From positions 733,865 through 797,864 of the forward strand of contig OZ246419.1 in assembly GCA_965231135.1 (NCBI GenBank): a stretch of 64,000 nucleotides of DNA, given 5' to 3'. A program made the position numbers and the translations under genes. Under the pieces are notes generated by a model that worked only from the letters and a program-made list of their open reading frames with translations, was not told the DNA's origin and searched no databases. Positions 26,459 through 62,052 of the stretch are shown here, piece by piece. The DNA is from an uncultured Gammaproteobacteria bacterium (GTDB lineage: Bacteria; Patescibacteriota; Microgenomatia; UBA8517). Within the stretch, counting starts at the first letter, position 1; every line of letters starts with the position of its first letter.

Positions 26459-27334
26459 CTATAAGCCTAATATTGAAATAAAGTAACTTAAAAGAGGTAT
26501 CACAGGTAATAAAATTAATTTCCCTAAAACAGGCGAAATGAAGCTTATTAACCCTCCAGCCAGGCCTAAAATTAAAATTGGAGAAATTGTCCAAACCAGG
26601 AGTAGAGATAGAATTGCTCCCAAGAAATTAAAATTGCCAAAAAGAAAAAAGATTATTGGAAAAATTCCCAGATTTGTACTAAGGGCTATTGATAGATCCT
26701 CCTTTAAGATTTCTGGAATAAATTTTAATGAATTTTTTATTTTTGAGTTGAACAAAACGATTGAGAATGTGGCTGTAAAAGATAAAATGAAGCCCAAGTC
26801 TAGTATTAAAAAGGGCCAAATAATTAGCATTAACAGAAACACAATTAAACTAATTTTAAGAGTATTTGTCACACGCCCAAAAATTAAACCGATGAATGCA
26901 ATTGTAGTAATTAAACCTGATTTAATCGATGATGTCTGAGAGCCAGTAATAAATATATAAATCCATATAATAAGAATTATTAATATTGCAGATTTTTGCC
27001 TTTTAATTTTATTTATAAAAATAGTCATTAAGAATCCTGCAAGAATTGTTATTTTTATTCCAGATGTTTCTGTTAAGAAAGTTATTCCTAAATTTTTAAT
27101 TTTGTTTCCCAAAAAATAAGTTAAATTATTTTTTGTACCCAAAACAATACTTGACAAAATTTCTCCTTTATCCCCTGGTATTGATGTATCAAAAAAATTT
27201 TCTAAAGATTTACTAATAAAATTTTCGTTAATGTCTTGAACAGGCTTTTGCAAATTAGTTGTCAGGAGACGAAAAAGAAGAAGACAGATCAACAAAAACC
27301 ACAAGGAATATTTCATTTTAAAATTAATAAACAA
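26459..27334 (-). CDS. comEC: ComEC/Rec2-family competence membrane protein (short, channel domain only)
   Basis: Polytopic; competence-domain-like LGTKNNLTYFLGNKIKNLGITFLTETSGIKITILAGFL; downstream of comEA. Confidence 0.65.
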   Translation of the reverse strand: MFINFKMKYSLWFLLICLLLFRLLTTNLQKPVQDINENFISKSLENFFDTSIPGDKGEILSSIVLGTKNNLTYFLGNKIKNLGITFLTETSGIKITILAGFLMTIFINKIKRQKSAILIILIIWIYIFITGSQTSSIKSGLITTIAFIGLIFGRVTNTLKISLIVFLLMLIIWPFLILDLGFILSFTATFSIVLFNSKIKNSLKFIPEILKEDLSIALSTNLGIFPIIFFLFGNFNFLGAILSLLLVWTISPILILGLAGGLISFISPVLGKLILLPVIPLLSYFISILGL

Positions 27335-27992
27335 TCAGTCGGTCTTTTATTTTGTTATATTCGCTTTGTTTTAAAACACTTTTGGAAAGCAACTCTTCAA
27401 CAGCCGAGTACGGTCTGTTATCAATTATTTTTTGACCGTATACTTGGCCTATTCCTTCTAAACTTTCCAGTTCTCCAAGACTTGCAGTGTTAATATTTAT
27501 TTGCCCACTTTCTGATTGTGCGACACTTGAATTTTGTTCATTTGAGCTAGCAATGTCATTGTTTGATTGCTGAAGAGAAGGTATATAGATCTTTTGGCCG
27601 TCTGTTAATTTTGCCGCCTTATTAATATTTTTATCAACCCAGTTTTTATCAGCATTGTCAGTAATTCCTCCGGCTTTTTGTAATGCATCTTCTACTCTAC
27701 TGCCAAAATCCAACTCATAAACTCCAGGGTTTACAACCTCACCTGAGACATCAATTTCTATTTTTAATGAAGCGCTACTTTCTGGACTATTTTCAACTGT
27801 AGAATTTCCTAGCACTTCTTGACTCTGATTGCTTGTAGAATGATTATTGCCTCTCAATATTAAACCTAGAATAACAAGGATTATGCCTAAGCTTAAGAAA
27901 ATGATCTGAAGTTTATATGGAGACGACAAAATTAATAATTTTGCCTGCGACAAAAATGACTTTGTAGTCTTTTCCACTGATCCATTTTTCAA
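27324..27992 (-). CDS. comEA: Competence protein ComEA (TM anchor + SLBB + helix-hairpin-helix)
   Basis: C-terminal HhH ININTASLGELESLEGIGQVYGQKIIDNRPY; TTG start at 27992 overlaps the leuS 3' end by about 80 nt, and alternative GTG/TTG starts exist at 27977 and 27953. Confidence 0.75.
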   Translation of the reverse strand: MKNGSVEKTTKSFLSQAKLLILSSPYKLQIIFLSLGIILVILGLILRGNNHSTSNQSQEVLGNSTVENSPESSASLKIEIDVSGEVVNPGVYELDFGSRVEDALQKAGGITDNADKNWVDKNINKAAKLTDGQKIYIPSLQQSNNDIASSNEQNSSVAQSESGQININTASLGELESLEGIGQVYGQKIIDNRPYSAVEELLSKSVLKQSEYNKIKDRLIVY

Positions 27993-30813: not shown

Positions 30814-31055
30814 TTATTTAATACCTAAATAAATCCAAACTCTATTCTCTCTGACCTTAATAAGAGCATTTGTGTCAACAACTATCTGCTGTTCATAACC
30901 TCTTTGCCTAAAAATAATTTGTTTTTCAATAATAGATATAAAATTAGAATGATCGTCTAAGATATCAAAAATACCACTTTTATTGTAGGAAGTTATATTG
31001 TCAACTTCTCCCTGAAAGACTATTTTATCTCTGTTTTTAACTAATAAACTTAGCA

Positions 31056-31056
<1 letters not shown>
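30814..31056 (-). CDS. atpC: F-type ATP synthase epsilon subunit (N-terminal beta-sandwich only, 80 aa)
   Basis: Position directly after atpD with shared boundary at 31056; LLVKNRDKIVFQGEVDNITSYNKSGIFDIL resembles the epsilon N-domain. Confidence 0.65.
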
Positions 31057-32438
<1,382 letters not shown>

Positions 32439-33314
32439 TTAAATAAATCTCCTTTGAGAAACCACTGTCGATAAATATTCTAATTGTTTTTTATTTGTTC
32501 TTGCATGAGCAAGTTTCAAATTTTGTGTTTTTGCTATCTCAAGATTTTTTCTAACCTTTTCTCCTGCCTGATCCATAGCAAGCATACGTGAGGCAAATTT
32601 GGCCAGCTGAGATTCTGTAATTGTCTGTTCAAAAATTGAAGAGAACATTTCTTTTTCGAAAAACATTAAAATTTCTTCCAGACTTGGTTCGAATAAATAT
32701 TTTATTTTCCTTCCCTTCTCGTCTTTATTTACTGGAGTTTCTGCAGATATAACTACTTCTTCTGGATCTTGATTGATTATGCTTTTAAACTTTCCATAAA
32801 AAATATGGATCTCTTCGTATTCGACCAAGTGACGAACAAGATCTCCCATCTTTTCTCTATCAAATCCGAAATCAGGAAGATCAAAATATGAATAAGATTT
32901 ATCCGGGAAAGATTGACGAAACATTTCTAAACCAAGAGTACCCACAATTGTAGCTTCGTAATCTCTTTCTCTAACTTCCTGAATAAATTTATTAAAAACT
33001 TTTCGAGTTAAATCGCCATAAAAGCCTGTATTTGCAGAAATAAATACTGCTACAGTTTTACCGTTATGACTTATTAACTTTAGTTTTTGACCGTTTTTGA
33101 TACCTTTTTTCTTTAATAATTTTTGAAATTCATCAGTGTATGATGCTTGTAATTCTTTAAATATTTGCTGCATATCTTCCAAGAATTCTCTAGAAGAAAG
33201 AACTGAACCTCTTGTAGCTTTCATGCGGCTTGAGGAGATTTGTGCATAAGCATCTGCTAATACACCTAATATTTCAAGATCAGTAACTTGTTTAGTAGTA
33301 TTTTTCTTGTCCAT
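32439..33314 (-). CDS. atpG: F-type ATP synthase gamma subunit
   Basis: Position between atpA and atpD; coiled-coil termini; ...QITESQLAKFASRMLAMDQAGEKV... matches gamma. Confidence 0.8.
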   Translation of the reverse strand: MDKKNTTKQVTDLEILGVLADAYAQISSSRMKATRGSVLSSREFLEDMQQIFKELQASYTDEFQKLLKKKGIKNGQKLKLISHNGKTVAVFISANTGFYGDLTRKVFNKFIQEVRERDYEATIVGTLGLEMFRQSFPDKSYSYFDLPDFGFDREKMGDLVRHLVEYEEIHIFYGKFKSIINQDPEEVVISAETPVNKDEKGRKIKYLFEPSLEEILMFFEKEMFSSIFEQTITESQLAKFASRMLAMDQAGEKVRKNLEIAKTQNLKLAHARTNKKQLEYLSTVVSQRRFI

Positions 33315-34737
33315 AATTTCCTTCTCTAAGCTTGTTCAGGAAGTCTGAATAAGCGGATGTTGATTTGATTAAAGAATCGATCTTATTTTTGAAATTTGCG
33401 TCTTTTTCATAATCGCTTACCATAGTTTTGATTTTTTCTTTCATTTGGAGAGGAGCCTGGTTTCTCCAAGAACCTGTCCAAAGCATTGCAATACATAAAA
33501 TACTTATATTTATAGGCATCACATCAACTGGCTGATTAAAAAATTCAAGAATCCTATCCCCCAACTTAAGCTTTTGCAAAACGTCTTCTGATAATTCTGC
33601 TCCAAAATGTACGAAGTCTCTTAATTTTTCAAGACTAACAAGAAATGAACTTAAATCACGGGTAATATCGCGAAGTAATGGAGTTTGGGCCTGTCCTCCT
33701 ACACGGGTAACTGATAAAAACGGATTAATTGGCGGGCGGCGTCCTAAGTTTGCCAACTCTGAGTCAAAGAAAATATGACCGTCTGTGATAGACATAAGAT
33801 TAGTTTGAATATATCCAGATAAATCTCCCAGGATTGATTCTGCTACAGGAAAACATGTAATTGAACCTGTTTTAAAATTTCCAGCACGTTCTAATAACTT
33901 TGAATGAAGATAAAAAATGTCTCCTGGATAAGAATTGCGGCCTGGAAAACGGCCTGCAAGAAGCGAGATCTGACGATAATATTTTGCGTGAGTTGTGAGA
34001 TCATCAAGAATAACGACTACATCTTTGCCCTGATCTCGGAAATGTTCTGCAATGGTCATAGCTGTATAAGGAGTCAAATAAATTAACCCTGGAGCATCTG
34101 AAGAAGCTGAGGCAACAATGATTGTATTTTGTAGCACCCCTTTTTTCTTAAGCGTGTTTAAAATTTCTTTTATTTCAACAATTCTTTTTCCGACCGAAGC
34201 GTAAATACAAATATTTTCTTTCTGAGTTTGATTGACAATTGTCTTAATAAAAAATTGAGTTTTTCCAGTTTTGCGATCTCCGATCACTAACTCTCTTTGG
34301 CCTTTACCGATTGGGATAACAAGATCAACAAGCGAGACTCCAGTTTCAAGAGATTCTTTTATTGGAGTTCTTGAAAGTAAATTTGGAGGTGTTGTATCGA
34401 TTTCTCTTATTGTTCCTGCAGGGCAGTTTTGATTATCTAAACAATGCCCGAGAGGATCCACTGTTTTTCCTAAAATTGCATTTGAAATATCAATTGATAA
34501 AGATTTATTTGTGCGAGCAACTTTTTGCCCAACTTTAATTGGAACATGGGACAAAACAAGAACTTCCGAATGTTCATTTGAGATAGAAATTGTCTGGCCT
34601 GTCTCTCCATTATCAAAAACAACAACTTCGTTTGGCTTTAAAGAAGGAAGGCCGCTTACGTAGACTATTGAATGCAACACTTCTTTTACTTCTCCGATTT
34701 CACCTGTTTCATTTAGATAATCTTGGTATTTTGGCAT
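33292..34737 (-). CDS. atpA: F-type ATP synthase alpha subunit
   Basis: Walker A GDRKTGKTQ; ILDDLTTHAKYYRQISLLAGRFPGRNSYPGDIFYLHSKLLERA. Confidence 0.92.
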   Translation of the reverse strand: MPKYQDYLNETGEIGEVKEVLHSIVYVSGLPSLKPNEVVVFDNGETGQTISISNEHSEVLVLSHVPIKVGQKVARTNKSLSIDISNAILGKTVDPLGHCLDNQNCPAGTIREIDTTPPNLLSRTPIKESLETGVSLVDLVIPIGKGQRELVIGDRKTGKTQFFIKTIVNQTQKENICIYASVGKRIVEIKEILNTLKKKGVLQNTIIVASASSDAPGLIYLTPYTAMTIAEHFRDQGKDVVVILDDLTTHAKYYRQISLLAGRFPGRNSYPGDIFYLHSKLLERAGNFKTGSITCFPVAESILGDLSGYIQTNLMSITDGHIFFDSELANLGRRPPINPFLSVTRVGGQAQTPLLRDITRDLSSFLVSLEKLRDFVHFGAELSEDVLQKLKLGDRILEFFNQPVDVMPINISILCIAMLWTGSWRNQAPLQMKEKIKTMVSDYEKDANFKNKIDSLIKSTSAYSDFLNKLREGNYGQEKYY

Positions 34738-34738
34738 A

Positions 34739-35188
34739 TTAGAAAGAGTTTAAAGTTTCGTTTATTAATTTATTTATGGAGCCATCAAAAAATTTTCCTT
34801 TATAGGAAAAGGTTGCTCCAGCGATAATTTTGGGATCCACTTTTATATCTAAAGCAATCTTATGATCTGTATTTTTTTGTAGCCAATTAGTTATTTTTTC
34901 AATTAAAATTTCTGACGGTTCTTTTGGAATTGTTATTTCTAAAAATTCAATTTTTTCAAGAAATTCTTTTATTTTTTTTATCACTTCTTCTTTGTTTTGA
35001 CCTTCTGTTAATTTTGAAATTGTATCTGCAAATGTTTTTTTGATTTTATTTTTAAGAACAAAATCAAAATTTTCTTTTTCTTCATAAATCGACTTCTCGA
35101 GAAGATCTAAATCGTTTTCAATATTTAAAACGTCATCACGAGTTGATACAAAATTAATAATTTCAGAATAAATTTGATCGTTTTGCAT
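34739..35188 (-). CDS. atpH: F-type ATP synthase delta (OSCP) subunit
   Basis: Position between atpF and atpA; 149 aa, helical, C-terminal IIAGATFSYKGKFFDGSINKL resembles the delta C-terminus. Confidence 0.6.
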   Translation of the reverse strand: MQNDQIYSEIINFVSTRDDVLNIENDLDLLEKSIYEEKENFDFVLKNKIKKTFADTISKLTEGQNKEEVIKKIKEFLEKIEFLEITIPKEPSEILIEKITNWLQKNTDHKIALDIKVDPKIIAGATFSYKGKFFDGSINKLINETLNSF

Positions 35189-35684
35189 TTTCTAAAGCCT
35201 TTAAAATAAGTTCGTCTTGTTTATTGTCATCAATAGAGCTTGAAACTATATCTGTAAATTTGCTTTTTAAGAGATCGTTTGCAGTTTTTCTAATTCTTTG
35301 AAATTCACTTGCTTTATATTTTTCAATTTCGTCTTTTGCGATATCGTATTCTGCAGAAACAGCTTTATCTTCTCCCCTTTTTTCTTCTATTAGATCTTCG
35401 ACGGTTTTCCTTTTTATTGAGTTTGCAATATTTTTAGCATTCTTTTCTATAAGTTCTACTGCTTCTAAACTTGCTTTTTGAATTGCATCGTCTAATTTCT
35501 CACTTGTAATACGGCTTGTATCAAGGTTTATTTTTCGTTTTATTTCATTTTTTTCAATATTTAATTTAAGATTTGTGTACTTATCAAGCGTTTTTTTATA
35601 TAGGAAAACTAGATACAAAACACAACCTAAAAGGACTGCAGTTATTAACATAAAAACTATAAATATAATTGACAAAATACTCAT
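35163..35684 (-). CDS. atpF: F-type ATP synthase B subunit
   Basis: A single N-terminal TM helix followed by a long charged coiled coil; operon position. Confidence 0.7.
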   Translation of the reverse strand: MSILSIIFIVFMLITAVLLGCVLYLVFLYKKTLDKYTNLKLNIEKNEIKRKINLDTSRITSEKLDDAIQKASLEAVELIEKNAKNIANSIKRKTVEDLIEEKRGEDKAVSAEYDIAKDEIEKYKASEFQRIRKTANDLLKSKFTDIVSSSIDDNKQDELILKALENAKRSNLF

Positions 35685-35688
35685 ATTT

Positions 35689-37386
35689 TCAGCTTAATAG
35701 ATTTTTGCCTGTCATGACAGGTGGAATTTCTAAACCTAATAATTTTAAAATTGTTGGAGATATATCAGCAAGGATTCCTTTTGGAATTTGTTTATTAGAT
35801 CTAAATAAATTTTTACTTACAGCGATGAAAGGCACTGGATTTGTGGTGTGATCTGTGCTCATTTTCCCTTTGTCTGACGTAAAAAAGAAACTGCTTGAGT
35901 CATATCTAAGTTTTTGTTCAGCATTTCCATGATCTGCTGTAATCAATAACGTACCATTACAAACCATAACACTTTCGGCGATTTCTTTAAGGCATGCATC
36001 GACTGCTTTAATGGCTTTAATAGTTGCTTGTATATTTCCAGTATGCCCAACCATATCAGCATTTGCTATGTTCATAACAATAAATTTATACATGTCTTTG
36101 TTTAAAACTTTTTTAAATTCTTCGGTTAAAGAATAAACTGACATTTCCGGCTTTTTGTCATATGTTGGTACATGGGGAGAAGGAACAATTGCGACGTCTT
36201 CTCCTTCCTGCTTCTCTTCCCGAAGGCCGTCAAAGTAATAAGTTACAAAACGCTCTTTTTCGCTTTCTGCCATATGCATTTGTTCAATATTATTTTTTGA
36301 AAGAATAACAGACAAACAATCAGAAACTATTTCAGGCGGAAAGCCGATGTCATTTACTGGGATATTTTTTTGATATTGTGTCATTGTTACAAAATAAAGG
36401 TTTGATAATACCCCTCCTCTTGCAAATGGCTCTTTATCTAAAACAACTTCTTTATCTCCTTCGTGTTTATGTTCGTAATCAACAGCGTAAGGGTCAAATT
36501 CCCATGTTAAATTTGATTTTGTAAAATCTTTTATAACAAAAGACATCGTAAGCTGTCTTGGTCTATCAATTCTAAAATTAAAGAAGACCGCAGCGTCGTT
36601 ATTTTCAACCAAACCGTTTTTGTTAATAATTGTTGGTACGATAAATTCATCAGTAATACCTGCAGCGTAGCTAGCCTTTAAGGCTTCGCTTGCTGAAGTT
36701 GCTGTTGGACCGATTGCTTTTACCATTGCCTCATAAGTTTTTTTAGTACGATCCCACCTTTTATCGCGGTCCATTGCATAATATCTTCCAGATATTGTTG
36801 CGATTTGGGCAGATTTTGTCTTATTAAGATAATCTTCGAGTTTTGTAACGACATTAATTCCCTCCTGTGGAGGTGCATCACGACCATCTGTGAATAAGTG
36901 AATATAAATAGGTCTTGTGTTATTTGTTTTTTGGAAAAATTCTAGTAGTGCATATAAATGATCTATAGATGAATGAACTTTTCCTGTACTTACAAGCCCC
37001 ATGATATGAATTTTGGAATTATTTTTTTGTGCGTGGAATCCGGCATGATAAAAAGCTCTGTTCTCAAAAAAAGAACCATCCTGAATTGCTTTATTTATTT
37101 TTGGAAGATCTTGTAAGATTACACGCCCAGCTCCGATATTTAAATGACCTACTTCAGTATTTCCCACTTCATTTGCCGGTAAACCAACAGATTCTCCTGA
37201 TGCTAAAAGTTCTGAATGCGGGTAGTTTGCAAGTAGATTGTTATAGTTATCTGGATTTGCAAGAGTAATTGCATTTCCATCTGATGCCGGAGCTATTCCC
37301 CATCCGTCAAGTATGACTAGAACAACCGGATTTGTTTTTCCGGCATTTACTTTTACTTTTGGTTTTGAAAAAAGACTAAAAAACAT
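35689..37386 (-). CDS. gpmI: 2,3-bisphosphoglycerate-independent phosphoglycerate mutase
   Basis: N-terminus VVLVILDGWGIAP; ...NADMVGHTGN...; 565 aa, typical iPGM size. Confidence 0.88.
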   Translation of the reverse strand: MFFSLFSKPKVKVNAGKTNPVVLVILDGWGIAPASDGNAITLANPDNYNNLLANYPHSELLASGESVGLPANEVGNTEVGHLNIGAGRVILQDLPKINKAIQDGSFFENRAFYHAGFHAQKNNSKIHIMGLVSTGKVHSSIDHLYALLEFFQKTNNTRPIYIHLFTDGRDAPPQEGINVVTKLEDYLNKTKSAQIATISGRYYAMDRDKRWDRTKKTYEAMVKAIGPTATSASEALKASYAAGITDEFIVPTIINKNGLVENNDAAVFFNFRIDRPRQLTMSFVIKDFTKSNLTWEFDPYAVDYEHKHEGDKEVVLDKEPFARGGVLSNLYFVTMTQYQKNIPVNDIGFPPEIVSDCLSVILSKNNIEQMHMAESEKERFVTYYFDGLREEKQEGEDVAIVPSPHVPTYDKKPEMSVYSLTEEFKKVLNKDMYKFIVMNIANADMVGHTGNIQATIKAIKAVDACLKEIAESVMVCNGTLLITADHGNAEQKLRYDSSSFFFTSDKGKMSTDHTTNPVPFIAVSKNLFRSNKQIPKGILADISPTILKLLGLEIPPVMTGKNLLS

Positions 37387-37389
37387 TTA

Positions 37390-38160
37390 TTAAATAATTA
37401 AAACTAGATAAGCTGCAACTAGGCCTACAAGAACAATCGCAATCATGACTGCGACGTTTATAATAACGCTTGCCTGAATACGGATTCCTGCCAAAGGATT
37501 TCTTCCGATTGCTTCAACTCCCGTTTTTGCAATACGGCCAAAGTAGACAAATCCTATGACAAATGATGAAATAACAAGAATTGAGGCGAGAATGTAACGA
37601 AGGGCAGAAATAGGACTTATACCCAAACCTGCAAGGCCGTTTTGTAAAAGAGAAACTAAATTTGTTCTTGCATTTAAATTTAAATCTGTTCGCGGATGGA
37701 TATTTAAACTTGCTTGAATGGTTCCAATCGCATTTTTGTCAGTAGAATTGTAATCCTGAAGAGCTGTTCCAATCACAAAACCAGGATTAATTGATAACTC
37801 TGCCACTCCCGGAATTTTAGAGCTTGTTAAGAAATCTCCCTTTTTAATTTCTCCATTTATAGAAGAAACTCGAAGAGGAACTTCACCTCTTGAAACTACT
37901 GTTTGAGAATTAGTTAAGTCTACTATTTGTACATCTGCTGAAGGATTGGAGTCTACAACCCCATACATAGAAGAGTCGTATTCATTTTGACAGAGAATAT
38001 AGCCTGATGATCCCGAACAAATTATGTCTCCGTCTTGGATATTATTACCACTAACAGAAATTGAAGAACCCACATCTGTAAAAGATTGTGTCTGAGCAAA
38101 AACATTATTTGTACTTAAAATTCCTAATATAAATATTACTAATAAAATTTTTTTGGGCAT
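37390..38160 (-). CDS. Secreted/membrane protein: signal peptide, about 170-aa Cys-containing extracellular domain, C-terminal two-helix hairpin resembling an F0 c-subunit fold
   Basis: Signal peptide MPKKILLVIFILGILSTNNVFA. Hairpin ...FGRIAKTGVEAIGRNPLAGIRIQASVIINVAVMIAIVLVGLV resembles c-subunit helix1-ARQPE loop-helix2 but has no helix-2 carboxylate. The extracellular domain is homologous to the C-terminal domain of the neighbouring giant protein. Confidence 0.55.
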   Translation of the reverse strand: MPKKILLVIFILGILSTNNVFAQTQSFTDVGSSISVSGNNIQDGDIICSGSSGYILCQNEYDSSMYGVVDSNPSADVQIVDLTNSQTVVSRGEVPLRVSSINGEIKKGDFLTSSKIPGVAELSINPGFVIGTALQDYNSTDKNAIGTIQASLNIHPRTDLNLNARTNLVSLLQNGLAGLGISPISALRYILASILVISSFVIGFVYFGRIAKTGVEAIGRNPLAGIRIQASVIINVAVMIAIVLVGLVAAYLVLII

Positions 38161-38323
38161 GGCGTATTAAGTAATACTACTTATTACCAAAACACTGGTC
38201 AATACCCTATCGAAAAAAATAAGTTGCTTATTGACAAGCTACTTTAATAAATGTCTTAATGTATATACAAAATCTTGGACAATGTCTAAATTTTTGAAGC
38301 TAATATAAAAATATTTAAATACT

Positions 38324-41300
38324 ATGAGTAAACTGCCCCGAAATAAATATATCTCCATTAATGAAGCTGCAATAAAACTTGGAGTATCTACTAAAACCTT
38401 AAGAAGATGGGAAGTTGCTGGAAAACTTATTGCAGTAAGAACTAATGGCGGCCACAGAAGATATGAAATTTCAAAACTTACAGAGTTAAAGATAAATGGT
38501 TTTAAGACGCCAAGAAAAGAATATATAAAGAAAATTGTTGTTAATCAAACTGTTAGTGATACCCCGAAAATAATTAAGATAGATAATATAGTAGAACCTC
38601 TTAAAATAAACCCTAATATCATCACTGAAGCATTACCTACTCCAATAGATATATATAATGCCCCAACGCTTGCACCTCAGCAAAAAAATATTCTAAAAAT
38701 AGTTGGTTTTTCTTTTTTTGGTTTTATTTTGATTGCAGGAGTATTTAAAATTTCTCCCGCAGTAATCTCCGCAACGAACTTATTCAAAGCTAATGCGGAT
38801 AATATTGCGGTAAATTACTTTCCAGGTATGCCTGGTGCTGTTAAAAGTTTTTTAAGCTCCAGGAATAATAATTTTGCGGATAATAAAGATGTGGCCTCAA
38901 AATTTGGACAAAATGTCCAAGTTTTGGCAGCAGAGACAAAAGCTAATGTCCCGGTTTTTAATGTAAACATTGAGTCTTCTTTTAAACAAGTTGCGGATTT
39001 TGTAAAGGGTTTAACATCAACCGATGTTTCAACTGGAACGCTGGAAGCATCAGACAATGCAACTTTTGCAAAAAATGTTGATATATCAGGCGATTTGACT
39101 TCATCAAGTGCAACATTTAATTTATTACCAAAAAACGTAACATCTCTTAATATCGGACTTACCTCAACTACAACAAGTATTTCAGCAACAACCGGTACTA
39201 CTACTATTAATAATGATTTAAATGTTAAAGGTGCCACCGCTCTTTCTGGTGCTCTTAATGTCGGTGGTAAGATTACAGGAAGCGGAGATTTAGCAATTTC
39301 GGGAGCAAGCGTATTGTCTGGAGCTTTAAATGTTTCTGGAGTGACGACACTTGCATCAGACCTCTCAGCGGCAGGAAACGCAACATTTGGCAATATTACT
39401 AAAGTTAATGGAGTGACTTATTCATTTCCTACAACTCAAGGAGCAGGCGGATCTACGTTAACTAATGACGGTTCGGGAAATCTCAGTTGGGTTAGCGGAA
39501 GTGGCAGTGGAACAATCGGTTTTTGGACAAGAACTGGAACAATATTAACACCAGCTACTGAAGGAGACACAATAGCAACTACCGGACAAATTGGAGCAGG
39601 AACAACAACACCAAGCTACCAGCTTGATATACAAAACCCAATTTCAGCCAACAACGGTATTCTTGCCAACTTTGCTTTATCAAATTCAAATACCGGAGCT
39701 GGAATCATTACAAACGGTATAAACGTATCTGCAACCGGGTCTATTCCAGCGAGCGGAACTAATACGAATAACCTTATTAATCTTTCAGCAATAACTGCTG
39801 GAAGTAATACTTTTAATGGAATAAATTTTGGTTCAGGTTTATCAAACTATATAAATAGTACAAATTTCATTGTCACTGCCGCTGGAGCAGAGACCCTTAA
39901 TTCTTCTTTGGTTGCAGTTGGAGTAAATGCCCAAAGCGGACTTCTTCAAGGCACAGGTGGACTAACTTTAACTGGGACAACAAATATAAATAGTACAGGA
40001 GTTGCAAATACTACTGTTGGTAATACAAGTGGAACGCTTGCTTTATCTTCTAACGCTTTTAACCTTGATACTTCAGGAAATATAACAGGAGTTCCAAGCT
40101 TAGATACAATCAACGTTTCATCTACTGCCTTAACATTTGCAGGAGCTGGAACAATTGATTCAGGAACAGCAAACGCTCTCAATCTTGGGACGGGAAATAA
40201 CGCAAAAACCATAAACATTGGAACAGGAAATGCTGGCAATATTATTAATATAGGAACAAATGATACAACCGCTGATGCAATTAATATTGCAAGCGCAAAA
40301 GACACCACTACACTTGCAGGCAACATTAGTCTTACTAATTTATCACTTGGCACTGGAAGTGCTTTGTGTTTAGATGGATCAAACAATTTAGTAACATGTA
40401 CTACTGGAACAGGCGGTATTTCTGGAAGCGGTGCAAGCGGACAAATTGCATATTATAACGGGGCAAGTAGCATTACAGGGAATAATAGTTTTTTCTGGAA
40501 TACGGCAACCACACAGCTCGGAATCGGAACAAATTCAACAACAGCTGGAGTTACTATTGCTGAAAATAGCGGTGACTTAATTGATGCTGGAACAACATCA
40601 AGCACTAAATTTACTCTTGATAATTCTGGAAACATTTTAGTTTCTCCTTCAACAAGATATGATACATTAACTTCCGGAACTCTTGGCGTCGGAACAACAA
40701 ACGCCACAACAGTAAACGTAGGAAACCTGAGCTCAACTACAAATTTAATTGGGGCAACAAATATTAATACAACAGGAAGCGGAAATACAACGATCGGCAA
40801 CGGAAGCGGAACTGTGGCTTTAAATCTGGGATCTGATGCAACTGGAGATATTTATTACAGAAATTCCGGTGGAACCTTAAGTAGACTAGGGATTGGATCG
40901 TCAGGACAAACATTAACAGTTTCAGCTGGAATCCCAAGCTGGGTTGGAGGCTCTGGAGGGACTGGAAGCTCGGGTTTTTGGAGTAGGACATCAGGGGGTG
41001 TTTTATCACCTGCAACAGCAACAGATACATTCAATCTAGCTCCTAATACAACAAACGGAACTGGAGTGAACGCTGGATTTAATTTGCAAGCAAACTCATT
41101 AACAAGTGGAAACGCTGTTGACATATCAAGCAGCTCAATAACAAGCGGTAATTTATTATCACTTTCTTCTACTTCAACGGCTTTTACATCTGGAGCAATT
41201 GCAAACCTCAGCTGGTCACCAAGTGCTTCAACAACTGCAACTGGAGATTTATTAAAACTTAATGTTGGTTCTAATGGAATTTTAGGTAATATTCTTGATG

Positions 41301-44300
41301 TACAAAATAATGGTTCAACTATATTTGGAGTGAGCCAAACTCAAATAATAGCTGCTCTTCCAACACAGTTCACTGCAGCTGGAGATGTTGGATTTGCATA
41401 CGATGTTAATTTTACAAATCCGGTTGCAAGTAATATCAAGTCCAGTTCTAATCTTAATATTGCTGCTGGCGAAACATTTAATTCATCAGATCTGACTTTG
41501 ACAACATATAATGCCGGAAATATTTTACTAAATACAGGTACAAGCTCGACAGGAAACGGGAAAGTTGGAATTGGGCCGTCAGTTACCCCCACTTCCTTAC
41601 TTACAGTAAACAATGCAAATGAATTATCAAACATAGGACAATCATTAGCTTTATTTAATCAGACTGAAAATCAAGATATTATGACCGCCAGCAATTCAGG
41701 GACAACAAGATGGACACTTGGATATCAAGGAAATATAACGGGAACTGCGGTAAATACCAGCGGCAACAGCTATAGTTACACGAATACAGCACTTAATACA
41801 ACAAGCGCAAATCTTCAGGCACTGGCATTTACAAATGCTGCATCAAGCGGAAGCATAACAGTAAGCGGAGAAAATATAACTGCAACAGGAACTGCAACTT
41901 CTGGAACAAACACTAACAATCTAGTAAATTTAAGTGTTGCAGCTGCGGCAAGTAATAACACATTTAATGGTATTAATTTTGGAAGCAATTTAACTAACTA
42001 TATAAATGGAACAAATTGGGTGGTAACAGCAGCAGGAAATGAAACGATAGCAGGAATAAATGTCACAGGACTTACAGCAAACTCAGCTGTATATACTGAT
42101 GGAAGCAAGAATTTAACAACATCAGCCCCAAGCTCTGGAGCTCTTGGATATTGGACTAGAACAGGAACTACACTCTCACCTACTACAAGCGGTGATGCTG
42201 TGACAACTTCTGGAAATATTTCTACAACTGGGTCAGGAACTATAACTAGCGCGTCAGATCTGGCGGTTAACGGATCAAATTTCACAAGTAGTTCAAGCTC
42301 GTTTAACCTACTGAATTCAACCCCAACAACTATTAATTTTGGGGGAAATGCTACAACTGCACTTAATATCGGCAATGGAAATAGTGCCTACACTGCAATA
42401 AACTTTGGAAGTGGAACCGGAGGCAATACAATTGGTATTGGAAATGGAGCTAACACAGGAGCGCAAACGATTAATATCGCTGCTGGAGCAGCAGGGGCAA
42501 ATTCAACAGTAAATATTTTATCAGGAATTGCAACTTCCGGGACACAGACACTTAATCTTGGAACAGGAGCTTCTGCAAAAACAGTAAACATCGGTAATTC
42601 AACAGGCGCGACAGCACTGAATTTCACAAGCGGTACAGGAGCTCAAACATTTGCATCAAGTGTTGTAACTGGCACGACAACCTCTGGAGCATTTGCATTC
42701 AATGCAAACTCTTTGACAACTGGCGATGGACTTTATCTTAATTCGTCTAGCATAACAACAGGCAATCTGCTAAATATCACATCTACCTCCACTGCTTTCA
42801 CTTCAGGTAATTTGGCAAGCATTTATTGGAACCCAGGATCTTCTACTACTGCAACTGGAGATTTATTAAAACTTAATGTTGGTTCTAATGGAATTTTAGG
42901 TAATATTCTTGATGTACAAAATAATGGTTCAACTATATTTGGAGTAAGCCAAACTCAAATTTCAAATAATTTACCAGTTTCATTTAATGCTCCTGGAGAT
43001 ATTGTTGATGCATATGACTTTTCATTTACGAATCCAGTTTCAAGCAACATAAAATCTTCTGCTCCGCTTACTATTGCAGCTGGCGAAATATTTAATTCTT
43101 CTAATTTGACTTTAACTACATATAATCTTGGAAATATATTATTAAATAGTGGAACAAGTACGGGTGGAAACGGACTTGTTGGAATTGGCCCTTCAGTATC
43201 TCCTACTTCACTTTTAACAGTTGATAATACCAATGAATTGTCGACAATCGGCCAATCTCTTGTACTTCTTAATCAAACAGAAAGCCAAGATATTTTAACA
43301 GCAAGCAATTCAGGAACAACAAGATTTAAGATAAATTCTGCTGGAAACACATTTACAACTCTAAGAAGTACAGGAACTGCAGCACTTTGTCATACTACAA
43401 ACGGAGCAGGATTTGATGAAATAACAGATTGTTCTGGAACTCCAGCTGCAGATTATGCTGAGTTTTATCCAACAGACGGAAGCGTTGATTATGGCGATAT
43501 CGTTGCTCCAAGCAGCCAAACCGTAACAACTAAAGTAAGCGACGGTCAAGGAGGAATAATTACCGGACAAACACAGCAAACTTCAGTTTTAACAAAGTCT
43601 AGTTTAGCTTATCAAGGAAATGTGATCGGAATAGTATCGAATAACTATAATGACTTTACATCAACCGGATACAATATAGTTGATCCTTCAAATAATCCAA
43701 AGCCAGTTGCTCTTAATGGACGTGTTCCCGTAAAAATTGCAACAGATTCTCCTGAGATTGCTCCAGGAGATTATCTTACAACTAGCGATCAACCTGGACG
43801 CGCAACTAAAGCTACACAAGCCGGAAGAGTTATTGGTATGGCACTTGAAAACTGGAGCTCTTCAAGCGGCAAAGATACAGTATTGGTTTTTGTAAATAAT
43901 ACCTGGTACGATCCTAACGCTGATGCAATCGCTGCAACAGGAAGCGCACAACTAAACAACATTGCATTAATGCTTCAAGATAGCTTTACAGCAAGCGATA
44001 GCGGAATTATTGCAAACTTACACGAGCTTGATACTGCAAAATTGAATGTACTTGGAGATACGACTTTGGGAGATACAGTTGTAAACGGCAAGCTTAATGT
44101 TGGCGGATTGACATTTGATGATACTAATCAATCAATAAATGCAATAGGCGTTTTGAAAATTCAAGACTTAGCTTTGGGAAATGTTGAATTTATGAACGGA
44201 CTGATAACTTTTGATACAAACGGAAATGCAAAGTTCCAATCTGTTACTGCTAATAAATATAATGTTGCTGGAACATCGGCTGGAACAGGCACAATTACAG

Positions 44301-44494
44301 CTGGAGCAACAAATGTTATTATTAATACTAATGCTGTTAACAACAGCTCTTTAATCTTTGTAACCGCAAGCACAGCAACAAGCAAGGTTTTAGCGGTAAC
44401 AACAAAGGTTCAAGGAACAAGTTTTACAGTTTCGATTCCGACAGCAGACATCAATAATATTAATTTCAATTGGTGGATTGTTGACAAACAATAA
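38324..44494 (+). CDS. Giant (2056 aa) membrane-anchored repetitive Ser/Thr/Gly/Asn-rich protein with an N-terminal cytoplasmic HTH (excisionase/MerR-type) domain, one TM helix, and a long beta-helix-like repeat region
   Basis: HTH YISINEAAIKLGVSTKTLRRWEVAGKLIAVRTNGGHRRYEI (nt ~38345-38500); TM ILKIVGFSFFGFILIAGVF (nt ~38690-38747); internal duplicated modules; a non-repetitive Cys-containing C-terminal domain (~43.3-44.5 kb). Confidence 0.75.
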   Translation: MSKLPRNKYISINEAAIKLGVSTKTLRRWEVAGKLIAVRTNGGHRRYEISKLTELKINGFKTPRKEYIKKIVVNQTVSDTPKIIKIDNIVEPLKINPNIITEALPTPIDIYNAPTLAPQQKNILKIVGFSFFGFILIAGVFKISPAVISATNLFKANADNIAVNYFPGMPGAVKSFLSSRNNNFADNKDVASKFGQNVQVLAAETKANVPVFNVNIESSFKQVADFVKGLTSTDVSTGTLEASDNATFAKNVDISGDLTSSSATFNLLPKNVTSLNIGLTSTTTSISATTGTTTINNDLNVKGATALSGALNVGGKITGSGDLAISGASVLSGALNVSGVTTLASDLSAAGNATFGNITKVNGVTYSFPTTQGAGGSTLTNDGSGNLSWVSGSGSGTIGFWTRTGTILTPATEGDTIATTGQIGAGTTTPSYQLDIQNPISANNGILANFALSNSNTGAGIITNGINVSATGSIPASGTNTNNLINLSAITAGSNTFNGINFGSGLSNYINSTNFIVTAAGAETLNSSLVAVGVNAQSGLLQGTGGLTLTGTTNINSTGVANTTVGNTSGTLALSSNAFNLDTSGNITGVPSLDTINVSSTALTFAGAGTIDSGTANALNLGTGNNAKTINIGTGNAGNIINIGTNDTTADAINIASAKDTTTLAGNISLTNLSLGTGSALCLDGSNNLVTCTTGTGGISGSGASGQIAYYNGASSITGNNSFFWNTATTQLGIGTNSTTAGVTIAENSGDLIDAGTTSSTKFTLDNSGNILVSPSTRYDTLTSGTLGVGTTNATTVNVGNLSSTTNLIGATNINTTGSGNTTIGNGSGTVALNLGSDATGDIYYRNSGGTLSRLGIGSSGQTLTVSAGIPSWVGGSGGTGSSGFWSRTSGGVLSPATATDTFNLAPNTTNGTGVNAGFNLQANSLTSGNAVDISSSSITSGNLLSLSSTSTAFTSGAIANLSWSPSASTTATGDLLKLNVGSNGILGNILDVQNNGSTIFGVSQTQIIAALPTQFTAAGDVGFAYDVNFTNPVASNIKSSSNLNIAAGETFNSSDLTLTTYNAGNILLNTGTSSTGNGKVGIGPSVTPTSLLTVNNANELSNIGQSLALFNQTENQDIMTASNSGTTRWTLGYQGNITGTAVNTSGNSYSYTNTALNTTSANLQALAFTNAASSGSITVSGENITATGTATSGTNTNNLVNLSVAAAASNNTFNGINFGSNLTNYINGTNWVVTAAGNETIAGINVTGLTANSAVYTDGSKNLTTSAPSSGALGYWTRTGTTLSPTTSGDAVTTSGNISTTGSGTITSASDLAVNGSNFTSSSSSFNLLNSTPTTINFGGNATTALNIGNGNSAYTAINFGSGTGGNTIGIGNGANTGAQTINIAAGAAGANSTVNILSGIATSGTQTLNLGTGASAKTVNIGNSTGATALNFTSGTGAQTFASSVVTGTTTSGAFAFNANSLTTGDGLYLNSSSITTGNLLNITSTSTAFTSGNLASIYWNPGSSTTATGDLLKLNVGSNGILGNILDVQNNGSTIFGVSQTQISNNLPVSFNAPGDIVDAYDFSFTNPVSSNIKSSAPLTIAAGEIFNSSNLTLTTYNLGNILLNSGTSTGGNGLVGIGPSVSPTSLLTVDNTNELSTIGQSLVLLNQTESQDILTASNSGTTRFKINSAGNTFTTLRSTGTAALCHTTNGAGFDEITDCSGTPAADYAEFYPTDGSVDYGDIVAPSSQTVTTKVSDGQGGIITGQTQQTSVLTKSSLAYQGNVIGIVSNNYNDFTSTGYNIVDPSNNPKPVALNGRVPVKIATDSPEIAPGDYLTTSDQPGRATKATQAGRVIGMALENWSSSSGKDTVLVFVNNTWYDPNADAIAATGSAQLNNIALMLQDSFTASDSGIIANLHELDTAKLNVLGDTTLGDTVVNGKLNVGGLTFDDTNQSINAIGVLKIQDLALGNVEFMNGLITFDTNGNAKFQSVTANKYNVAGTSAGTGTITAGATNVIINTNAVNNSSLIFVTASTATSKVLAVTTKVQGTSFTVSIPTADINNINFNWWIVDKQ
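41235..41346 (+). repeat. 112-nt direct repeat (copy 1) inside the giant gene, part of a roughly 1.6-kb diverged internal duplication
   Basis: Identical to 42849-42960 except one mismatch (gtgagcc vs gtaagcc); encodes GDLLKLNVGSNGILGNILDVQNNGSTIFGVSQTQI. Confidence 0.85.
42849..42960 (+). repeat. 112-nt direct repeat (copy 2)
   Basis: See copy 1; the flanking protein sequence is about 70% identical over roughly 500 aa. Confidence 0.85.
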
Positions 44495-47400
44495 TGAAAA
44501 AACTTTTCAAAAGAAAACCAAAATTATTTTACGGACTTATACTATTTATAGTAGTTATATCTTTAGTTGGAATAAAACTTTGGGCGGGTAAACCAGTACA
44601 AGGAGCATGGTTTGATACCAAGTGGGCTTTTCGACAACGCTTCCCTATTTCCAATACCTCCGGTGCAACACAAACAAATTTTCAGACGCAAATAACATTA
44701 GACACTTCAACATTAATAAGTGCAGGGAAAATGCTTTCGACTTGTAACGATTTGCGAATTACAAATGCAACTGGAAAACAACTTCCTTTTTGGATAGAGC
44801 CAACTACATGCAATACAGCTTCAACTTTAATCTGGATAAATGTTGATTCGATTCCAACAACAGGAGCTGATGTTTATTTATATTATGGAAATCCATCTGC
44901 AAGCCCTGCAGGGTATACAACTAACCAAGTTTTTATTACAGATATGAATCAAGCTGTTGCGGGTTGGCCTTTGGATGATACAACCACTACCCAAAGTTAT
45001 GCGAGAGCAGTGAATGGTGCGACTAGTACAGGAAGAAATTTAGTTTTAAACGGAACTTTTGATAGCAGCTCAAGTTGGAACTTTAATGGGACAGGTTGGA
45101 CTATTTCTGGTGGGATGGGAGTGGCTACAAACGCACAAACTACTGACCTTACTTATCAAAATGTTCCTTTGGTAGCTGGAAGAAGTTATCAAATCACTTA
45201 TACCATTTCTGGTTATACCTCAGGAAGTGTCAGGGTTCTCGCAGGAAATGGTGGCTTTGGAACGATGCGCTCAGCAAATGGAACATACACTGAAAATATT
45301 ATTGCAGCCGGAGCTTTATATGTGGGATTCCAAATTCCAGTGAATGGAACAACCCTAAATATTGATAACGTTTCAGTTACTGAAGTAAACATTCCCTCTT
45401 CTACTGCAACACCAACACAATTACTTACTGATGGAAATATGGAAGCAAGTGGGACGGGGGCGTGGACAGCAGGCGGAAGCGCAACACTTTCGAAACAAAC
45501 AGGGACTTCCCATGGAGGAACACAAATTTTAAGAATCACTGCAACCGGTGGTACAAATCCTAATGCTTCTCAGAATATTCTTTCTAACAATACTGTTTAC
45601 AGGGTTTATGGATATGCAAGAAGTGATGGGAATATTGCACCTAAAGTTTATTTGGGAAGTAATCTTATGTGGACTGGAACAACATCGGCAACCTGGCAAC
45701 CGTTTGACTTTGTAGGTTTAACTTCTACGGGTAATAGTACTTTTTATCTGCTTCAATCAAGCAGTATAAATGGCCAATATGTAGAATTTGACGACGTAAC
45801 AGTTTCCCTTGATACAGGCATAAGAAGTGATTCTATTTTATCTACACTTGATGGAGATATGGAACAGTCTGGGACTTCTTACTGGAGCACATTAAATGGC
45901 GCTACGATCTCGAAAGATGCCAGCAGTCCACATGGCGGAACTCAATCTTTAAAGATAGTCAGCTCTGGCGCCTCAAGCCAGAATGTATACCAGACTTACC
46001 TATCTAGCGTTGCAGGAAAAACTTATCGAATTACTGGGTACGCAAGAGGAGATGGAACTGCTGTTCCTCAAATTCTTTTACCAAACGGAGCTGCTTTGTG
46101 GACCGGAACAAATTCAAGTTCTTGGCAATCATTTGATGCAACGTATGTATATGTAGCTGCTTCTCCATACGGATCTCCAATTTTAAGGCCTCAAAATACT
46201 GCTCCTAACGGCGATTATGTTGAATTTGATGATATTATCATTAACGAAGTCGATCCTCTAGTTGGAATCCCTACAAACGGAGTAACTCTTGGAGCTAGTG
46301 CAAACGGCCATCTCACTAATGCATATTCTTTTGATGGCACAAATGATAATGTGAATATTTATTCAGGAAGCTTAAATTCTGTCTTTAATCCTTCTGAAGG
46401 AACAATTGTGGCATGGGCAAAAGTAAGTGGAGCTGGAGTGTGGACAGATGGAACTCAGAGAGTGATTGTGAGAATTGGCCGTGTGGATGGAAATAATAAT
46501 TTAACTATTTCCAAAAGCGCGTCATCTAATACACTTACGGCTTCTTATGTTGCTGGAGGGTCAAATTTAACTGCTAATACAACTACTTCAACAAGCGGAT
46601 GGTTTATGGTTACACTAAGCTGGTCTAAGAGCAGTGACCAGGTTAAACTTTATTTAAACGGCACGCAATCAGGATCGACTTTGACAGGAGTTGGTACATG
46701 GAGCGGAAATTTTCAAAGCGTTAACTCAGTTATTGGAGATGCAAGTACAACACCCGGTTTTCCATGGAGCGGGCTCATTAATGATGTACGAATTTATAAT
46801 TACGCATTAACACCGGCCCAGATTGCCGCACAATACAACGCATCTTATGACACACAAAACTACACAACTGCAAACGATACAGGACACGAATTGGTGCGAG
46901 AGTACAATACAAACATTACAGTTGGAGCGGCTGCAACAGAAGAAGTTGGGCAAGCTTCAATATTAAACTGGCATTTGGACGAAGGAAATGGAACAACTGC
47001 AAACGATGCAAGCACAAATGCAAATAACGGAACTTTAGCTGGCACTACTCCACCATCCTGGCAAACTGAAAATAATTGTGTAATTGGTAAATGTTTGCTT
47101 TTTGACGGACAGAGCTCAAAAATAACTGGAACAAAGGCAGCTAATAATTTGCAAACTGTAGCTTTCTGGATTTATCCAACTGATATAACAAGCCGCGGGA
47201 TTATGAACTTAGACGGCGGAACTCACAAAATATCTTTGAGTTCGTCTGGAATTGTAACTGCTACAGGCTGGTCTTCTCCAACATATTATGTAAATGGTAT
47301 TGCAACAACAAATCCTGTTTTATCCTTAAATCAATGGCAGTATGTGGAAATTACAACAGCAACACCTTTCTCTACTTCAAGCTCTTTTACAGTCGGGACT

Positions 47401-62035: not shown

Positions 62036-62052
62036 ATTGAAAGCTAATTATA

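Follow-up and report, generated by a model that had tools for sequence, protein, structure and literature searches.

A c-subunit-like membrane protein without the ion-binding carboxylate heads F1 ATPase gene clusters of Microgenomates

The closest functional parallel to the gene cluster described here is found in the Type 2/3 ATPases of mycoplasmas (Mycoplasma mobile gliding; MIB-MIP-linked). The X0 membrane sector of mycoplasma F1-like ATPases includes a protein that starts with a signal peptide, continues with a large domain, and ends in a hairpin of two transmembrane (TM) helices (PMC3369863). The F1-like motor of M. mobile is paired with phosphoglycerate kinase (PGK) and giant surface proteins (bioRxiv 10.1101/2024.06.11.597861). 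More generally, it is puzzling what an ATP synthase does in cells that have no respiratory chain (PMC11665869). The DNA analyzed here, referred to as the window, is a 64-kb stretch of contig OZ246419.1 (positions 733,865 to 797,864) from a Microgenomates metagenome-assembled genome (MAG), and it carries a minus-strand F1 gene cluster headed by a gene for a 256-aa protein, X256. Judged by its sequence, X256 is a c-subunit-derived membrane protein that would be unable to bind a coupling ion in the known way. The cluster is read, with somewhat better than even confidence, as a modified F-type ATPase whose Fo part for ion translocation has given way to another membrane sector, a repurposed, non-ion-translocating "F1-X0".

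The minus-strand order is X256 (37390-38160, 256 aa), gpmI (35689-37386, 565 aa, from Pfam and NCBIfam), a b-like gene (35163-35684, 173 aa, from position and TM prediction), a delta-like gene (34739-35188, 149 aa, PF00213), F1 alpha (33292-34737, 481 aa), F1 gamma (32439-33314, 291 aa, PF00231), the catalytic subunit F1 beta (31056-32438, 460 aa, TIGR01039), and a short epsilon (30814-31056, 80 aa, PF02823). X256 and gpmI are separated by 3 nt, gpmI and the b-like gene by 4 nt, and the delta-like gene and alpha by 1 nt; gamma and beta abut, and overlaps of 26 nt (b/delta), 23 nt (alpha/gamma), and 1 nt (beta/epsilon) join the remaining genes. The initial annotation had given this order and these coordinates, with 38161-38323 as intergenic and a giant plus-strand gene beyond, and the open reading frame (ORF) map confirmed them. 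It had also described the operon as lacking atpB and a normal atpE, which held within the 64-kb window: a six-frame scan returned the X256 hairpin as the sole c-like hairpin and no ordinary atpE, and no atpB was found, the multi-TM ORFs being 7TM_transglut, VTT, ComEC, and Wzy/TPR proteins, not ATP-synt_A. Misassembly or a frameshift fusion as the source of X256 was ruled out because X256 is a single ORF that is kept in hundreds of independent assemblies.

The AlphaFold2 (AF2) model of X256 (mean predicted local distance difference test [pLDDT] score of 84) consists of a signal peptide, a beta-rich ectodomain, a short linker helix, and a C-terminal c-like hairpin; the beta domain covers residues ~30-156 at pLDDT 88-96, and long helices run through residues 183-220 and 222-255. 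The signal peptide (aa 1-22, 38095-38160, minus strand; AF2 helix 3-15) ends at a predicted cleavage site where A22 and Q23 are conserved in ≥90% of the aligned members, and cleavage at this A-Q pair is probable. Because of the signal peptide, the near-invariant A-Q motif, and a basic loop, X256 is predicted to have the topology of a c subunit, with both termini extracellular and the loop cytoplasmic, which would place the beta domain outside the cell. The ectodomain (aa ~27-160, 37681-38082, minus strand) probably has a beta fold resembling phage decoration/cement proteins and the phi29 gp12 autochaperone at sequence identities of 10-18%, and Pfam models for XM1_gp53 and Phage_cement_2 matched 10 and 7 of 27 family members, respectively (PF23982, PF09956). 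Unlike those phage proteins, X256 is cellular, and its domain is fused to a membrane hairpin.

The hairpin (aa 183-255, 37396-37614, minus strand) is a c-subunit homologue. When a 27-member X256 profile was searched against all Protein Data Bank (PDB) sequences, c subunits made up seven of the eight matches (best E 0.005), and profile-profile comparison (hhalign) with eight canonical c subunits gave 85% probability and E 5.8e-6 over 69 columns. The family hairpin HMM matched a canonical Microgenomates c subunit at 3e-10, and in fold comparison the ~70-80-residue hairpin superposed on c subunits. The initial annotation had likened the loop to the polar loop of c subunits, and the larger sample agrees: the loop G[VI]EA[IL]GRNPLA is invariant in 82 of 82 family hairpins, including the GRNP that corresponds to the R-Q/N-P loop of c subunits (in the window, G219-R220-N221-P222 of GVEAIGRNPLA, 37495-37506, minus strand). 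The comparison with c subunits or VirB2/TrbC pilins that had been proposed came out for the former, and a type IV secretion system pilin appeared in none of the profile or profile-profile match lists for the hairpin.

What sets the hairpin apart from a working c subunit is the second helix. The C-terminus of X256 is YFGRIAKTGVEAIGRNPLAGIRIQASVIINVAVMIAIVLVGLVAAYLVLII, in which helix 2 has no Asp or Glu, as had been noted from the window, and the carboxylate is missing in all 82 family members. E. coli D61 was aligned by hhalign to I240 (37441-37443, minus strand), the counterpart of the ion-binding Asp/Glu of canonical c subunits; this position, +20 from R220, is I, A, V, L, F, or G across the 82 members and never D or E. 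An invariant polar residue occurs instead at +15, where 65 members have N (N235 in the window, 37456-37458, minus strand) and 17 have H.

Canonical c subunits (AtpE, PF00137), especially those of loci L094 and L095, share with X256 the hairpin topology, the R-N-P loop, and the VEAIGRNP of the Shapirobacteria-type c. X256 also adjoins atpF as atpE does, lying directly before it in loci without gpmI. In contrast to canonical c, however, X256 has Ile in place of Asp/Glu, N or H instead of Gly at +15, no GxGxGxG packing motif in helix 1, and ~180 additional N-terminal residues (signal peptide, beta domain, and linker), and no a subunit adjoins it. Its scores also fall far below family cut-offs: the NCBIfam c-subunit model gave 16.6 bits against a cut-off of 128, and 5 of the 27 members matched PF00137 weakly (best E 0.002). 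The loop of canonical Microgenomates c subunits, AVEAIGRNPE, is nearly identical to that of X256, so that a c subunit of this type is the most likely ancestor of X256.

The R-Q/N-P loop of c subunits contacts gamma and epsilon, and by analogy the RNP loop of X256 probably does the same. As this contact loop is invariant, X256 is taken to be the membrane partner of the F1 encoded in its cluster. It might instead be a surface-protein anchor unrelated to the ATPase, acting as a partner of the giant neighbour, with the F1 genes co-transcribed by accident. The window protein had no Pfam match at E ≤ 1, its ectodomain is common to the giant, and one related F1 cluster has no X256 (locus L091), all of which would suit an anchor, but an 11-residue loop identical to the gamma/epsilon-contact loop and invariant in 82 members is unexpected for a generic anchor, three kinds of comparison (profile, profile-profile, and fold) returned c subunits, and X256 is fixed in the first place across three operon architectures and distant alpha lineages. 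An unrelated anchor is thus considered very unlikely.

The X256 family comprises at least 305 protein clusters; its genes are found in at least 377 genomes at species level and in 409 or more metagenome stretches, and some members are labelled "subunit c" by JGI. The same layout was seen in 80 species-level genomes as well as in additional metagenome contigs, and wherever a locus is long enough to tell, X256 comes first in the F1 cluster (80 species, and distant alpha lineages as well). Three architectures were distinguished among 78 classifiable genome loci: X256-gpmI-b-delta-F1 in 34 (~40%, the window included), X256-b-delta-F1 in 33, and a minimal X256-alpha-gamma-beta-epsilon in 11, among them the complete chromosome CP066686.1. 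The b-like and delta-like genes are thus found in 67 of the loci and absent from 11 clusters (11 species), and the constant core is X256 with alpha, gamma, beta, and epsilon. Two alpha lineages less than 40% identical to all those sampled still have X256-b-delta-F1. The X256-F1 cluster is a widespread, non-random arrangement, a variant of F-type and F1-like rotary ATPases that is undescribed in the searched literature. Nothing on it was found there; the paper reporting genome Ch104b does not discuss the ATPase of that genome, and no F-type ATPase entry was found in the supplementary files of the Hainich MAG paper.

The gpmI gene encodes cofactor-independent phosphoglycerate mutase (TIGR01307, 568 bits against a cut-off of 331). 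It had been placed by the initial annotation in the F0 position, an assignment that did not survive the wider sample: gpmI is present in the 34 loci given above, absent from more than half of the classifiable loci, and not found in Levybacteria- and Amesbacteria-type operons. From the three architectures, it follows that gpmI is a lineage-specific insertion and not an F0 stand-in. In the minimal loci (L020, L035, L036, L040, L046, L061 [CP066686.1], L062, L063, L067, L073, and L079), the gap between X256 and alpha ranges from -3 to 169 nt, and some alphas are just 429-434 aa long.

The F1 subunits are recognizable and divergent. ATP-synt_ab (Pfam) matched alpha at 3e-71 and beta at 2e-60. Beta is the only subunit to reach its NCBIfam equivalog cut-off, by ~2 bits (TIGR01039, 464.7 bits against 462.85), and its best match to an F1 beta in the PDB scored 396 bits; the other subunits fall below their cut-offs. 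Gamma is divergent (PF00231 at 7e-25; TIGR01146, 71 bits against 194), the delta-like protein matched OSCP in its C-terminal part only (PF00213 at 2e-8; TIGR01145, 32 bits against 57.5), and epsilon is confined to the beta-sandwich domain, without the C-terminal helices (PF02823 at 3.5e-7, residues 6-75). In the 173-aa protein, a single TM helix at the N-terminus precedes a long helix; no Pfam or NCBIfam family matched it over threshold (best, ATP synthase B at E 0.064), and it is called b-like from its position and shape only. The best PDB matches of alpha are F1 alphas, with the alignment starting at residue 10 as against residues 24-32 of the PDB chains, so that the N-terminal, delta-binding helix is ~14-20 residues shorter than in those alphas. 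This shortened N-terminus is common to ~80 alpha clusters (50% identity), though most of the operons keep a delta-like gene. Alpha lies on a long branch, and a search of 1.84 billion representatives placed canonical alphas no closer to it than Bacillus alpha; a close canonical outgroup for the window alpha was sought, and none exists.

The catalytic residues are intact. The P-loop, the GERxRE motif with the catalytic Glu, and the Walker B Asp of beta were conserved in 66 of 66 sequences, and the P-loop Lys and Arg finger of alpha in 69 of 69. They are invariant in all three architectures, including the 11 operons without b and delta, and the enzyme has therefore been kept as an ATPase; the F1 of X256 clusters appears to be active and under selection. 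The initial annotation had allowed for X256 being a structural remnant, which does not fit an invariant loop, the N/H at +15, and a place at the head of the cluster in hundreds of species beside alpha and beta with invariant catalytic residues. The wider proposal that the whole cluster is a decaying, non-functional relic of a lineage losing its ATP synthase has some precedent in Microgenomates without any ATP synthase (Ch65, PMC7143001), and the missing a subunit, the truncated epsilon, the absence of b and delta from certain species, and scores under family cut-offs would accord with it. Against this stand the intact frames in hundreds of species, the tight operon, the invariant catalytic residues and loop, and the gain of a signal peptide and ectodomain, which are function-like features; decay is scarcely credible as an explanation.

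The comparison with the mycoplasma Type 2/3 systems extends to several features. Both have alpha, beta, gamma, and epsilon, intact catalytic motifs, fast-evolving sequences, and a ~1-Mb genome, and both lack a and c subunits (here, none lies beside the cluster, and X256 is c-derived). Giant surface proteins and a glycolytic enzyme also occur in both (PGK in M. mobile, gpmI in the window operon). The parallel between gpmI and PGK is treated as a lead only, since beta lacks an N-terminal extension and gpmI is missing from over half of the loci. The X256 system differs from the mycoplasma systems in that its membrane partner can be traced to c, b and delta are mostly kept, there is no 12-TM protein, and beta has no N-terminal extension to which a glycolytic enzyme could bind. 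It also falls outside the mycoplasma families, because scores with the NCBIfam models glide_MMOB1660/1670 and MSC_0618/0619 were far below their cut-offs (alpha, 378 against 600 and 271 against 520; beta, 371 against 850 and 393 against 570). A genuine F1Fo coexists with these systems in mycoplasmas, whereas X256 genomes were read at the window and flanks only. FliI-FliJ-FliH offers a further likeness, in that proteins resembling F1 alpha/beta and gamma sit on a membrane ring and do not serve ion-coupled ATP synthesis. Alpha and beta are nevertheless clearly F-type here (465 and 393-436 bits, compared with ~200 for FliI models), and the membrane partner is c-derived and not an export gate.

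Other Microgenomates have a canonical operon, found at L094 (1-4936), L095 (9264-14678), and L096-L100, where L095-L100 are the 949-kb Shapirobacteria contig. It contains atpB (243 aa, PF00119), atpE (75-76 aa, PF00137), atpF (119-141 aa), alpha, gamma, beta, and a full-length epsilon; the atpE product has the loop AVEAIGRNPESE with Glu at +20. The L094/L095 operon has no delta gene, and its alpha likewise has a short N-terminus. For the search of X256 loci, E. coli AtpB/AtpE BLAST probes were replaced by true Microgenomates atpB, atpE, and atpF probes, which in BLASTP against six-frame ORFs (181 sources, 2.07 Mb) matched canonical loci only and none of ~165 X256 loci. Within ±10 kb of X256 loci, no ORF combined four or more TM helices with an RxxxN motif, and neither an a nor a canonical c subunit is encoded within this distance; the positive controls L090 and L095 gave both PF00119 and PF00137. 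Named matches in the canonical a/c search came from Shapiro-, Gottesman-, Roizman-, and Dojkabacteria, with no Woese-, Levy-, or Amesbacteria among the matches listed, and no contig was common to the X256 matches and the canonical a/c matches listed. The named hosts of X256 belong to Woese-, Levy-, and Amesbacteria, apart from one locus (L072) that is labelled Shapirobacteria, and GTDB placed five X256 MAGs in Levybacterales f__UBA12049 (four) and GWA2-44-7 f__UBA8517 (one). The canonical a/c lists consisted of the top 120 matches by similarity to a Shapirobacteria query, and because these are the top 120 of flat lists, the separation of lineages is suggestive only.

These results bear on two rival readings. 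In the first, the ATP synthase would be split, with stand-alone atpB and atpE elsewhere in the genome serving this F1 and X256 as an accessory, for example a minor component, lacking the carboxylate, of a mixed c-ring, or a factor for assembly or regulation. The same class is known to have canonical a and c genes, most X256 operons retain b and delta, and c2/3 of Acetobacterium woodii (4bem) was among the PDB matches of the X256 profile. Hairpins without a carboxylate occur in mixed or duplicated proteolipid rings, for example c1 in A. woodii. V-type c and A. woodii c1 are like X256 in being c-type hairpins without the ion carboxylate that are still part of a rotor ring; such rings, however, also contain carboxylate-bearing hairpins and work with an a subunit, none of which is encoded near X256, and X256 bears an ectodomain. 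The organization of the canonical genes also speaks against a split, as every canonical Microgenomates atpB-atpE found is part of a full operon to which a b gene and F1 genes (alpha, gamma, beta, and epsilon) belong, and the alpha of that operon is just 36-38% identical to the window alpha. No canonical a, c, or b was present in the ~165 X256 loci, X256 takes the place of atpE immediately ahead of atpF in the 33 loci without gpmI, neither lineage nor contig overlapped among the matches listed, and 11 species lack from the cluster the b and delta that a coupled pump could not do without. A split synthase is accordingly judged unlikely.

The second reading, of similarly low probability, is that X256 genomes also hold a complete canonical operon and that the X256 cluster is an additional F1-like ATPase with a special role; it differs from the preferred F1-X0 explanation solely in the content of the rest of the genome. 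Two deeply diverged families of F-type operons exist in Microgenomates, mycoplasmas provide a precedent with Type 2/3 beside Type 1, and the one X256 locus labelled Shapirobacteria belongs by name to a lineage with the canonical operon. The evidence on the other side is weak: no long contig appeared in both the X256 and the canonical a/c matches listed, named lineages are disjoint but for that one label, and the best 80 metagenome matches of X256 did not include the Shapirobacteria contig of 949 kb.

The divergent giant gene (38324-44494, plus strand, 2,056 aa) encodes an N-terminal MerR-type helix-turn-helix (HTH; Pfam 6e-10), one TM helix, and a huge extracellular region. Near its C-terminus is an X256-type ectodomain (aa ~1747-1862, 43562-43909, plus strand) that matched the X256 ectodomain in BLASTP at 35% identity over 82 aa (E 8e-11, window). 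An HMM of the ectodomain matched the window giant at 9e-15 and the giants of 10 other loci at 1e-11 to 1e-20; L086 was also matched. A homologous divergent giant gene is present upstream in 77 of 85 loci. The ectodomain that the two proteins have in common and the constant adjacency of their genes suggest that the giant surface protein is a partner or target of the ATPase. A cytoplasmic MerR-type HTH followed by one TM helix is an odd architecture for a surface protein, and the giant might regulate the divergent ATPase cluster while tethered to the membrane. The secreted beta domain common to X256 and the giant was one of two features absent from the initial annotation, the other being the canonical atpB-atpE operons of other Microgenomates.

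Under the F1-X0 explanation, X256 would have evolved from a Microgenomates c subunit that kept the hairpin and the cytoplasmic R-N-P loop, which would dock gamma and epsilon, and that lost the membrane carboxylate. A signal peptide and an extracellular beta domain would have been added at its N-terminus, which is outside the cell in normal c as well. With no a subunit accompanying it, X256 would most likely oligomerize into a c-ring-like assembly that holds its own alpha3-beta3-gamma-epsilon at the membrane, with b and delta as an optional stalk. The complex would hydrolyze ATP and move no ions, passing torque or a conformational change to an extracellular crown of ectodomains that probably works with the adjacent giant surface protein bearing the same domain. 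Since there is no a gene and the c-type protein lacks the ion residue, the enzyme probably burns ATP for something other than proton pumping or ATP synthesis, and the loss of b and delta in 11 species also argues against a coupled pump or synthase.

Several points weigh against the F1-X0 explanation. Ring formation, F1 docking, an ATP-driven mechanical output, and interaction with the giant are all steps that we infer, and the link between the giant and X256 is drawn from domain homology and adjacency, while the MerR-type HTH of the giant means that regulation alone could explain the adjacency. The 11 operons without b and delta have no evident stator, which leaves rotation that does work on the ring unexplained. 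The lineage separation comes from top-120 lists ranked by a Shapirobacteria query, and X256 locus L072 is itself labelled Shapirobacteria. Canonical atpB-atpE, alone or in a second full operon, may lie elsewhere in the 810,692-bp contig of the window, in CP066686.1, or in CP055307.1.

In a broad and widespread section of the Microgenomates (CPR bacteria), the genes counted as "ATP synthase" cannot form a proton- or sodium-coupled enzyme by the known mechanism, because the cluster has no a and its sole c-type protein has no ion site and carries an extracellular domain, and metabolic reconstructions of X256 organisms change accordingly. Under the F1-X0 explanation, the cluster would be a second natural case, beyond mycoplasmas, in which a rotary F1 motor has been connected to a non-canonical membrane part, and one in which the evolutionary path may be read, because the membrane partner goes back to the c subunit. 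The conserved pairing with a giant that has the ectodomain in common with X256 gives a concrete hypothesis on how episymbiotic ultra-small bacteria power surface functions. A further-reaching proposal is that Levybacterales and GWA2-44-7 (Woese-, Levy-, and Amesbacteria) have no ion-translocating ATP synthase at all and that their sole F-type ATPase has turned into an ATP-driven rotary or mechanical device. Its c-ring, devoid of carboxylates, would wear an outward crown of phage-decoration-like domains that engages the matching C-terminal domain of the giant, a surface fibre anchored by its N-terminus. This is put forward tentatively, as possible but not probable. If true, an "F1-X0" surface machine would have been invented independently a second time, following the gliding and MIB-MIP-linked ATPases of mycoplasmas, and it might serve in attaching to host cells, moving on them, or manipulating them.

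The intergenic region between X256 and the giant gene (38161-38323) contains opposed TTGAC (-35-like) boxes at inverted repeat I6 (arms 38195-38204 and 38229-38238) and a promoter-like site on the minus strand (38202-38174); all are consensus matches only, and promoter and terminator scans gave scores not above those of shuffled sequence. In Levybacteria-type loci, the giant gene and X256 are separated by a gene for a 312-aa protein that is encoded on the same strand as X256 (L051, 3133-4068; L059, 8986-9927). This protein was considered as an a subunit and rejected, being soluble and Fic-like with a C-terminal winged-helix (wHTH) motif.

Two further giants follow in the window (44494-52242, 2,582 aa; 52268-58741, 2,157 aa), each with DUF2341 and six Laminin_G_3 domains and neither with an X256-ectodomain-like domain, and after them comes a 681-aa Wzy_C/TPR membrane protein (58784-60829). 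A DUF2341/LamG giant likewise follows the MerR giant in L004.

The cluster without X256 in L091 (contig SRR26784071_149983, 4967-12012) lies after ABC_tran and a MacB/FtsX permease and consists of b (171 aa, 1 TM), delta, an alpha with a short N-terminus, gamma, beta, and epsilon (85 aa). No X256 or c-like hairpin was found there within ±8 kb, and a 2,474-aa Kelch/fn3 protein is encoded upstream on the same strand. The canonical atpI-B-E-F operon of L090 (6106-12781) has delta and alpha fused in one 676-aa protein (OSCP and ATP-synt_ab), and several more of the alphas on the representative list are long enough (590-835 aa) that they could be fusions of this kind.

Low-GC third-party annotation (TPA) MAGs titled "uncultured Gammaproteobacteria" or "Pseudomonadales" carry the Microgenomates-type cluster (L006, L007, L010, L013-L017, and many others), and it also occurs once each under the titles "Alphaproteobacteria", "Saccharibacteria", and "Paceibacterota"; the organism names of these records look wrong or are placeholders. 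The presence of leuS downstream of both operon types was rejected as positional orthology, as the LeuS pair is 23-32% identical and leuS lies within 3 kb in 6 of 50 X256 loci. A minus-strand alpha-like match in L074 proved to be Rho and not F1 alpha, and Rho also lies behind the extra alpha-like BLAST matches. In the window, Rho stands beside a LysM/M23 peptidase on the minus strand (60956-63252), and the same pair occurs in the distant locus L074 (17728-20446). The window also encodes a ComEC homologue of just 291 aa (26459-27334), the Competence domain alone, directly after comEA (27324-27992) and leuS.

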